Below, piece after piece: positions 5,119 through 23,959 of a stretch of DNA of 26,085 bases. The translations under genes were made by a program, and so were the position numbers. The notes below the pieces were generated by a model. That model made no database searches, was not told where the DNA came from, and saw only the letters and a list, made by a program, of their open reading frames with translations. Within the stretch, counting starts at the first letter, position 1, and every line of letters begins with the position of its first letter. The stretch comes from a virus (taxonomy: Duplodnaviria; Caudoviricetes): the IMG/VR virus record IMGVR_UViG_3300020045_008200, positions 1 to 26,085 of that record, one strand, 5' to 3'.

Positions 5119-5196
5119 TGGAGAAGACAGGAATCTAACCTGTGACGACAGACGCTATTATTACGGTCCCGCTCTTACCTACTGAGCTACATCCCC
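5119..5196 (-). ncRNA. tRNA-like element or tRNA pseudogene (Ala-type acceptor, aberrant anticodon arm)
   Basis: Acceptor GGGGATG/CTTCTCC+A; D arm GCTC-AGTAGGTAA-GAGC; T arm ACAGG-TTAGATT-CCTGT; no canonical 7-nt anticodon loop; no encoded CCA. Confidence 0.7.
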
Positions 5197-11861: not shown

Positions 11862-12087
11862 TATTAACCTCACTTTCTGTAATTTTATTAATTTCAGTTC
11901 TAAGTGTTTTAGCGAATTTAATTGCTGTTGATTTGTCTAAAACTATATTAAATAACTCACTTTCAAACATTCCAGTAATACTAATTACATCAATAGTATT
12001 CCATTCATTTGATGCACATGATAATTCTGCTTTAATAAAATCTTTATTATTTAATAAATCAATAAACTTTAATTCAAATTTTGCCAT
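11854..12087 (-). CDS. Hypothetical protein, first gene of the replication operon
   Basis: 77 aa, stop overlaps the initiator start. Confidence 0.75.
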   Translation of the reverse strand: MAKFELKFIDLLNNKDFIKAELSCASNEWNTIDVISITGMFESELFNIVLDKSTAIKFAKTLRTEINKITESEVNNG

Positions 12088-12095
12088 AATAATAA

Positions 12096-12237
12096 CCGTT
12101 TTTAATTAGAACGGATAAACTATTTAGTTATGTAAAAAGTAAAATTCCATTAAGTCAGCCGTATTGTGAGAAGGGCTTTCCTAATGGAATCTTTATAATA
12201 TTTTCGGTAAATTTTGCAATGCTTCTCACTTCATTAC
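12096..12237 (-). ncRNA. Structured 5' leader with complementary loops (kissing loop/attenuator)
   Basis: Hairpin GTAATG/CATTGC with loop GTGAGAAG; hairpin ATTCCATTA..AGCC/GGCT..TAATGGAAT with loop CTTCTCAC; then a T-rich tract and a CCGTT/AACGG hairpin. Confidence 0.7.
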
Positions 12238-12242
12238 TAATG

Positions 12243-12250
12243 CAAATATA
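12243..12250 (-). promoter_or_regulatory. Bacteroidota -7 element TATATTTG for the replication operon
   Basis: TAnnTTTG match, TTTG 17 nt upstream, directly before the structured leader. Confidence 0.65.
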
Positions 12251-12264
12251 AACAATTAAATTAA

Positions 12265-12378
12265 TTACAAAACAATTTTATCAATTATTTTTCTATAAAC
12301 TTTATTTGCTATTTCAGAATTACAACCACGTTTGTGATAAAATTCTATTACTATTAATATTCTTTCTAAATTACTCAT
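12265..12378 (-). CDS. Small hypothetical protein (37 aa, MSNLERILIVIEFYHKRGCNSE...)
   Basis: Manual translation; start overlaps the thyA stop. Confidence 0.55.
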   Translation of the reverse strand: MSNLERILIVIEFYHKRGCNSEIANKVYRKIIDKIVL

Positions 12379-13201
12379 TTTTAATAGGTGCTAGCATTTC
12401 AACTTTTATAAAGCTATCTGGATTATAATTTTTAATTTCAAAAAATATTGGATTTAATCCTTTCAAGTCCTCATTAATTTTATCATTATAAAATAAATCA
12501 GGTATCGTATATTTTTTGCTTTTACTGTTCATTAATTTAATAGCAGGAACAACAGCATTATCATATAAATGAACGCATTTTAAATCACCTTGAACCCCTT
12601 TAAATTCTACTCCAGTAATAGTTTGTAATAACATTCCTAAAGTAAAGTAAGATGCTATATTGAAAGGTAATCCTAAAAATAAATCAACACTTCTTTGTTT
12701 CCAATGTAACTCAAACCCTCCTTCTGAACTAATAATTTGAAAACCAGTATGACAAGGTGGCAAAGGTGTTTCGTGAAGTTCTGAAGGATTCCATGCTTCA
12801 ACTAATAAACGAGACCCGTTTATATCTTTTTTCATGTTTTTAATTAGTTCGGTAATTTGGTCTACTTTGCCTGCGTAATTTCGCCATTGAATACCGTAAT
12901 TTTGTCCGGCATCTATTCCGTTCCAATTTGCAATATCTTTATCCCAGATTTTGTTATTATATTTATGAAGAAATTCAAGTGTATTATCTCCATTTAAGAA
13001 CCAAATTAACTCACTTGCTACGTGCTTAAAATTAACAGATTTACATGATAATAAAGGGAAGCCTTCGATAACCATATGTCTAATTGTATAGCTTGGTATT
13101 TCTACTTTTAAAACATTACGCCTAACATTGTGTTTTACTTCGCCATCGTTAACTACTTTTTTAAGTAAGTTTTTAAATTTTTTATCTATATTCATTTTCA
13201 T
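12371..13201 (-). CDS. thyA: Thymidylate synthase (ThyA family, divergent)
   Basis: PPCH catalytic Cys, QRSVDLFLGLPFN, HLY, ELIWFLNG, YGIQWR. Confidence 0.9.
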   Translation of the reverse strand: MKMNIDKKFKNLLKKVVNDGEVKHNVRRNVLKVEIPSYTIRHMVIEGFPLLSCKSVNFKHVASELIWFLNGDNTLEFLHKYNNKIWDKDIANWNGIDAGQNYGIQWRNYAGKVDQITELIKNMKKDINGSRLLVEAWNPSELHETPLPPCHTGFQIISSEGGFELHWKQRSVDLFLGLPFNIASYFTLGMLLQTITGVEFKGVQGDLKCVHLYDNAVVPAIKLMNSKSKKYTIPDLFYNDKINEDLKGLNPIFFEIKNYNPDSFIKVEMLAPIKNE

Positions 13202-14481: not shown

Positions 14482-14511
14482 CAAAAATACAATAAAATAT
14501 CAATTAAACAA
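14482..14511 (-). promoter_or_regulatory. Leftward sigma-A promoter TTG-N19-TATTTTTG
   Basis: TAnnTTTG at 14489-14482, TTG at 14511-14509. Confidence 0.65.
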
Positions 14512-23641: not shown

Positions 23642-23899
23642 ATGGAAGCAAAACAATTATTTAACGGAATACAAAAAGTTAGTCCAGAAGTGTACAACTA
23701 TTATAAAGACAGAGTTGAAAAGGAATTTATTATTAATTCATTATCCGAATTGCCCATTGAAAAATTAAAAGAATTAGTTTCTTTTAAAGTAGTAAATCCA
23801 TTTGATAAACAAATACATGTGTCATTTGAAGAAGCCGAACATAGAGATATATTAGCGAATCAAAGAGTAATAGAACTTAGTATGAAAATAAATTTATAA
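23642..23899 (+). CDS. Hypothetical protein
   Basis: 85 aa ORF followed by a terminator. Confidence 0.7.
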   Translation: MEAKQLFNGIQKVSPEVYNYYKDRVEKEFIINSLSELPIEKLKELVSFKVVNPFDKQIHVSFEEAEHRDILANQRVIELSMKINL

Positions 23900-23901
23900 A
23901 T

Positions 23902-23933
23902 AAAAAATCCCTTACATATAATGCAAGGGATTT
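23902..23933 (-). terminator. Rho-independent terminator, probably bidirectional
   Basis: AAATCCCTTGCAT/ATGTAAGGGATTT stem with T6 tract on the minus strand, between convergent genes. Confidence 0.8.
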
Positions 23934-23959
23934 AATAAGATAAATTTTTCTCCTTTCTT

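Follow-up and report, generated by a model that had tools for sequence, protein, structure and literature searches.

The question raised by this locus is what a phage gains from an RNA leader whose two hairpin loops are complementary to each other and which stands between a host-type promoter and a replication operon. The window, by which we mean the whole stretch of 26,085 nucleotides analysed, a 26-kb virus record, carries this leader on its minus strand; every coordinate listed for it was re-checked in the sequence, and the promoter box, three hairpins and U run that a first-pass annotation had marked were all found at their places on that strand. The promoter box is of the Bacteroidota sigma-A type (TAnnTTTG, 12250-12243; minus strand, as for all features of the leader and its operon), and its positions T1, A2, T6, T7 and G8 do not vary among 33 aligned leaders. 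Such boxes sit at -12 to -5 (PMC9723704), which would place the start of transcription near 12238, one base 5' of the first hairpin. This hairpin, P1 (12237-12216), pairs six bases (arms 12237-12232 and 12221-12216) around a 10-nt loop in which two unpaired A residues precede the first kiss strand (12229-12222). The linker, 28 nt in the window and ~15-28 nt among the parsed leaders, includes a conserved A-rich single-stranded segment (12204-12194, alignment columns 50-60), where most columns show 0-4 parsimony changes (one column 9-10) compared with 7-15 in columns 46-49. The terminator-like hairpin P2 (12190-12144) consists of an 11-bp lower stem, a purine-rich internal loop, a 4-bp upper stem (12177-12174 with 12160-12157) and a 13-nt loop, of which the 5' part is the second kiss strand (12173-12166) and the rest five further nucleotides. 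An 8-bp loop-loop helix between 12229-12222 and 12173-12166 is assigned from complementarity and covariation, and an interrupted U run (12143-12134) follows P2, where a terminated transcript of ~103 nt is predicted to end. The arms of hairpin 3 (12114-12110 and 12100-12096) lie further 3', the hairpin ending 8 nt 5' of the ATG at 12087.

For the predicted 105-nt transcript (12238-12134), the computed fold consists of P1 and P2, each with an open loop, at -25 kcal/mol (z -4.0), a stability equalled by 1 of 200 shuffles; P2 alone has -19.3 kcal/mol. When loop 2 was shuffled, eight pairs with loop 1 were retained in 245 of 100000 trials. No further copy of the element was found in the window with either of two leader models.

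The operon comprises, in order, a 77-aa ORF (12087-11854), a 224-aa ORF (11861-11187), a primase-helicase (11184-9343; phrog_239, E 4e-79, with Toprim and DnaB_C) and a RusA-like resolvase. The 224-aa protein is a putative replication initiator by its position and its winged-helix-like N terminus; its matches are generic winged helices (Z at most 6.2, DnaD 5.0) with no firm family, and DUF1376 occurs in 4 of 28 homologs. Hairpin 3 had been placed correctly 8 nt before an ATG, but the gene that begins there is the 77-aa ORF and not the initiator. The window also encodes terminase and portal genes, and the closest named relatives of the phage infect Cellulophaga, Flavobacterium and Leeuwenhoekiella; these are phages of Flavobacteriaceae, in agreement with the Bacteroidota setting first proposed. 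A thymidylate synthase gene (12371-13201, minus strand) lies directly upstream on the same strand, and no terminator-like hairpin was found in the 110 nt before the leader promoter, so transcripts from upstream may run into the leader. Elsewhere in the window, back-to-back TAnnTTTG boxes at 14489 (minus) and 14577 (plus) separate the leftward early genes from a rightward ERF operon, and neither leader model found a kissing leader at these boxes. A tRNA-like element at 5119-5196 (minus; Rfam tRNA, 43 bits, E 3e-6; no ARAGORN call), with an anticodon arm that looks irregular, immediately precedes a sigma-factor-like gene, and a strong two-way terminator-like hairpin at 23897-23940 (minus) lies between capsid-region genes and two convergent small ORFs.

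Whether the loop-loop pairing is conserved was judged from the leaders of related phages. From 125 IMG/VR relatives of the 77-aa ORF the best 80 were taken, of which 62 had distinct leaders, 14 duplicated another and 4 lacked a promoter box in range, so that 63 leaders, the window included, were compared; the four box-less relatives also match our model R2, and one of them is truncated and two are displaced by an inserted gene. At least seven Watson-Crick kiss pairs are retained in 62 of the 63 distinct leaders, the longest duplex that the 5' region can form with the interior of P2 being 6 bp in 1, 7 bp in 14, 8 bp in 26, 9 bp in 15 and 10 bp in 7. When leaders were mismatched with one another, 585 of 3906 pairs reached 7 bp, a figure raised by shared codes. 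Two alignments were drawn from the 63 leaders by eye on loop polarity, one of 33 rows with the polarity of the window (A1, including the GenBank phage morran9-1) and one of 14 rows with swapped polarity (A5, including phi10:1). In the former, the kiss is 98.9% paired with compensatory double changes in six of eight pairs, and 260 of its 263 cells are Watson-Crick and none G-U; P1 is paired in 95.8% of cells (double changes in 4/6 pairs) and P2 in 92.2% (13/15). The structure score was reached by 0 of 500 shuffles, which ignore relatedness, and structures slid along the alignment pair 36-44%. In the swapped-polarity rows 95.5% of kiss cells are paired, and seven of the eight pairs show double changes. 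The first-pass annotation had proposed a cis-acting RNA with a loop-loop pseudoknot and had named covariation in the leaders of relatives as a check on it; the 8-nt complementarity is exact in the window and kept in relatives, and the covariation is present in both loop polarities. Thus, by comparison of sequences, we conclude that the 8-nt loop-loop pairing is real and conserved. The stems hold 52 G-U as against 4 A-C cells, an asymmetry that points to an RNA of the minus strand and on which an inverted repeat acting at the DNA level was set aside.

Automatic parsing covered 61 of the 63 leaders, with some rows mis-parsed, and revealed a regular geometry. In the short loop mostly 1-3 unpaired bases come first, and the kiss strand then abuts the 3' arm; in the long loop the strand abuts the 5' arm and ~3-8 nt follow. 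Both stems consequently meet the kissing helix at one and the same end. By automatic sorting of these 61, the short loop is on P1 in 38 leaders (type I) and on P2 in 16 (type II), and the loops are of equal length in 7. The kiss duplex has a median energy of -11.2 kcal/mol among the parsed leaders, and the first two kiss pairs (invariant), the purine-rich internal loop of P2 and the A-rich linker are conserved. One 8-mer pair is used in both polarities and recurs in unrelated phages. The element also occurs in cultured phages and is thus testable at once: Flavobacterium phage morran9-1 shares the 8-mer pair of the window, and Cellulophaga phage phi10:1 is of the swapped-loop type. In the morran9-1 genome, a 47-aa hypothetical CDS (gp042) is annotated in GenBank over the leader RNA (L115, 2140-2300) and is probably spurious. 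Five loci (L009, L030, L049, L066 and L067) form a subtype with a short P1, 8-9-nt loops and a 7-bp kiss, and the folds shown for them have an additional hairpin within the linker.

The leader is not confined to this operon. A strict descriptor applied to 27 whole phage contigs returned 32 matches in 22 genomes, of which two were dropped (a G009 element matched again from a second promoter, and G026 2140, judged spurious by eye) to leave 30 elements; its sensitivity is incomplete, as G001, G002, G018, G022 and G038 gave no match and do have elements. On 7122 promoter-like sites the descriptor gave 39 real matches, compared with 0, 1, 0, 0 and 0 in five shuffles. There are 1-4 elements per genome, with letters that differ within each genome examined and four codes in G021. 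In 29 of the 30 elements the first ATG, 6-51 nt 3' of P2 on the same strand, opens an ORF of at least 43 aa, and the 21 downstream proteins outside the close 77-aa family comprise four NUMOD4-HNH, one each of GIY-YIG, ERF, YopX and DUF7768, and 13 with no Pfam family. Several relatives lack the 77-aa ORF and have the element directly 5' of the 224-aa gene, and neither loss of the first gene nor insertion of another removes the element from its 5' place. At three distant initiator loci (L106, L110 and L111) no element was found immediately upstream, and at L082, L084 and L103 the kiss is reduced to 6 bp. A search of host genomes, in which 31 candidates were scored per genome and absence means not found among those, gave model R2 matches in 5 of 121; only the match in a phage-like contig has the kiss, the other four being plain hairpins, which is in line with R2 also matching plain host terminator hairpins. 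Copies with different letters before many gene types argue for a portable leader and not a replication-specific device. The description of the element as the leader of a replication operon therefore holds for its place between a host-type promoter and the primase-helicase operon, and fails for replication specificity, since other copies precede HNH, GIY-YIG, ERF and YopX genes. At the level of sequence, the predicted P1-linker-P2-U-run fold, the kiss, the place between promoter box and start codon and the portability are established.

Hairpin 3, which had been read as part of the switch, proves to be a separate module tied to the 77-aa gene. This sequence-conserved module (12124-12088; hairpin 12114-12096), a candidate translational operator, is present in 63/63 leaders of the 77-aa gene and shows compensatory changes in 2 of 3 pairs (33 leaders). 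It occurs once per genome in 21 of 27 contigs, always before the 77-aa gene, and a pattern scan of IMG/VR that made no use of the protein returned 43 matches, 43/43 of them before the same protein family; a kiss of at least 7 bp is also present in 41 of the 42 hairpin 3 loci with a promoter in range. The exception is L029 (1020-1510), where an unrelated ORF has been inserted between leader and PUR-like gene with a copy of the module on either side, so that the second copy precedes that ORF, as if a gene had been captured at the motif. At three further loci (G033 35804, G041 8972 and G038 26341; L142, L151 and L150) apparent distant relatives of the 77-aa protein have another motif before the ATG where hairpin 3 would stand, which suggests that the site and the protein changed together. 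The 77-aa protein, with 1220 homologs, is predicted to adopt a PUR/PC4-like single-strand nucleic-acid-binding fold (AlphaFold pLDDT 90, strands followed by a helix in the PUR/PC4 arrangement). Its best structural matches are PUR repeats with Z 7.7 (rmsd 2.2 over 63 aligned residues), 7.2 and 7.1, the best Foldseek E is 0.038 and no Pfam match was found; with Z below 8 and no Pfam match, the models indicate likeness of fold to PUR and not family membership or function. The protein may repress its own translation; a PUR-like protein would do so by limiting translation via hairpin 3, a second control separate from the kissing leader. Translational autoregulation is described for Borrelia BpuR (PMC6736767), which shares ~12% identity with the 77-aa protein, the latter being in a phage context.

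The place of P2 in the transcript bears on how the leader might work. A simple terminator scan did not call P2 a terminator, given its 13-nt loop, internal loop and broken U run. The eight nucleotides after the last G-C pair contain 3-7 U in 61 leaders, most commonly five (four in the window), and the U run is conserved among the 33 aligned leaders. No promoter box was found between P2 and the ATG in 63 leaders, and a terminator-like hairpin lies just 5' of the promoter in 17 of 61 leaders compared with 4 when shuffled, several of the 17 being close kin; together these imply that P2 must be read through, at least partly. A helix formed with upstream sequence is stronger than the native lower stem in only 3 of 61 leaders, and those three are mis-parsed, which argues against a classical antiterminator. 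Its absence fits a steric or kinetic mechanism, as in guanidine-IV and upstream structures generally.

We therefore propose, tentatively and at a little under an even chance, that the leader attenuates transcription without a ligand, the kiss slowing formation of the terminator-like P2 and so letting part of the polymerases enter the operon. In this putative mechanism, P1 at the extreme 5' end would fold first, and loop 2, which would leave the polymerase ahead of the 3' arm of P2, would be caught by loop 1 in a duplex of about -10 kcal/mol. The tethered P2 would then zip more slowly, allowing the polymerase to pass the broken U run, and where P2 won an RNA of ~103 nt would be released. The outcome would be a fixed dose or a delay of early genes (replication, recombination and free-standing endonucleases), and what tunes read-through could be elongation speed, temperature, Mg2+ or a protein, and not a partner RNA. 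That the kiss should favour read-through is taken over by analogy from guanidine-IV. Against this attenuator, the linker (~15-28 nt, 28 nt in the window) looks long enough for the kiss and a complete P2 to exist together, whereas suppression by an upstream structure requires a short spacer (bioRxiv 10.64898/2026.06.17.733018), an 8-bp Watson-Crick kiss may be constitutive rather than a switch, and the U run is weak and P2 is missed by the simple scan.

The same linker length is what recommends the main rival, a rigid fold of kiss and complete P2 together that would serve as a landing pad for a protein or for RNA polymerase, or as a stabiliser of the mRNA 5' end, so that shape and not a race would matter. 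Its kiss geometry persists in leaders with exchanged loops (among 61, 38 are of type I, 16 of type II and 7 of equal loop length), and the conservation of the A-rich linker, the purine-rich internal loop and the first two kiss pairs would likewise suit a shape that is recognised. A known RNA with some likeness to the leader is HK022 put, a pair of stem-loops that immediately follows an early promoter and influences termination with no phage protein involved, acting via conserved residues on RNA polymerase; unlike the leader, put is not known to have loop-loop pairing or a terminator of its own. No candidate protein, be it a phage or a host antitermination factor, was found for the rigid fold, the gene for the PUR-like protein is missing from many elements, and the conserved U run after P2 would be superfluous for a mere stabiliser. 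We consider a rigid fold that is read by a protein or shields the mRNA possible but on the unlikely side.

The variable letters of the kiss invite another explanation, in which they are an address for a trans-acting RNA (an antisense RNA, or else the short terminated RNA made by this phage or by another infecting the same cell) whose binding would open the kiss and turn replication off, giving immunity or copy control. The letters differ among elements of one genome, as with the four codes of G021, and the 8-mer pair shared across unrelated phages and both polarities means that a loop of one phage could pair with that of another. There is, however, no surplus of code copies: in the window the exact 8-mer occurs at the two kiss sites only, it is found at the kiss only in all five other phages with this code (four of them at least 90% complete), full copies of the code elsewhere number none for 19 of 30 elements and one to five for 11, and central 7-mers elsewhere number 47 in these 30 elements compared with 80 from shuffled codes. 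A scan of the 63 leaders for antisense promoters of the TAnnTTTG type found no conserved box, no 20-nt bin holding more than 4. A tyrosine integrase, the one class of integrase searched for, is present in 4 of 32 phages, and the 77-aa family has one full-length match among GTDB genomes. On a neighbour-joining tree the kiss changes 3.0-5.0 times per pair, P2 3.3-4.0 and P1 1.3; with the kiss evolving no faster than P2, diversifying selection on the code is not clearly indicated. The trans RNA with the same 8-mer that had been suggested at the outset thus finds neither excess copies nor a conserved antisense promoter in its favour, and the accompanying idea of immunity draws no support from the tyrosine integrases found; we regard such an address as improbable. 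The same doubt attaches to its widest form, in which ligand-free RNA gates would be spread phylum-wide among Bacteroidota phages, each operon with a swappable, barcode-like kiss, and short terminated RNAs would jam matching gates of the same or a co-infecting phage; were it true, it would amount to RNA-addressed feedback and phage-phage exclusion without a protein repressor or an antisense gene.

That the leader is instead a stand-alone small RNA of ~103 nt, running from promoter to terminator with a job of its own and feeding the downstream genes by leakage, appears improbable. Its own promoter box, compact fold and terminator-like end would suit such an RNA, yet 29 of 30 elements lie 6-51 nt 5' of a same-strand ORF, each of the 1-4 differently lettered copies per genome precedes an operon, and the element keeps its 5' place on loss of the first gene or on gene insertion. 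A translational pseudoknot of the IncI repZ type that opens the start codon region is very improbable, because although P2 ends 6-20 nt 5' of the ATG in several relatives, in the window it ends 56 nt before the ATG, the kiss strands lie at least 78 nt from the ATG and overlap no start region, no leader peptide ORF was seen between promoter and ATG, and no conserved antisense promoter box of the TAnnTTTG type was found.

The attenuator has its closest likeness in the guanidine-IV (mepA)/Gd4v riboswitch, which is also a 5' leader of two hairpins connected through their loops in a pseudoknot, with a terminator-like hairpin on the 3' side, and has no strand-exchange antiterminator (PMC11611296, PMC9788692); for our leader, the terminator function of P2 in this comparison is putative, the simple scan being negative. 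In guanidine-IV the long-range kissing loop is reported to hinder assembly of the terminator during transcription (PMC11611296). The leader differs from it in that its kiss pairs vary (6/8), its loops swap hairpins, and the genes downstream of its copies (PUR-like, putative initiator, NUMOD4-HNH, GIY-YIG, ERF, YopX and DUF7768) are not guanidine transport/detoxification or transaminase genes. A 'tug-of-war' antitermination is also similar, being a sequence-independent suppression of an intrinsic terminator by upstream structure; that structure abuts the terminator base and requires a short spacer, whereas the leader binds the terminator loop over a 15-28-nt linker (bioRxiv 10.64898/2026.06.17.733018).

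Kinship with c4/CI RNAs had been raised by the first-pass annotation with Rfam c4 models as its check, and the search gave no match for the window or 20 loci and nothing near the gathering score over the leader. The P1 c4 antisense RNA resembles the leader, as P4 CI does, in its complementary blocks and in premature termination. P4 CI and its seqA-seqC share with the leader short complementary blocks before replication genes (PMC4825925), but CI is a processed RNA of a temperate element that pairs with two targets (PMC4825925), whereas the leader has one pair only, no third copy and mostly no tyrosine integrase. The IncI repZ pseudoknot and Inc antisense RNAs likewise place a loop-mediated pseudoknot 5' of a replication gene, but they are translational and require a counter-transcribed RNA, and the leader shows neither a conserved antisense promoter nor start-region overlap (PMC8383071). 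With defining features of each tested and not found in it, the leader is not a member of guanidine-IV, c4/CI or IncI. It is uncatalogued in Rfam, and no paper describing the motif was found in literature that extended to few subscription journals; its novelty with respect to the IMG/VR structured-RNA catalogue rests on the main text of that paper, in which 'kissing' does not appear, and the alignments of the catalogue could hold the element (PMC10690425).

The leader is a common and portable cis element, detected one or more times in 22 of 27 genomes with the strict descriptor. Its kiss is unusual in having both stems at one helix end and exchangeable loops. With orthogonal letter codes, the leader would lend itself to use as a tunable part in the engineering of Bacteroidota. 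To our knowledge, little is known of how early genes are timed and dosed in Bacteroidota phages and, if the attenuator is true, these phages would possess a natural, ligand-free control of a terminator that acts via the terminator loop.
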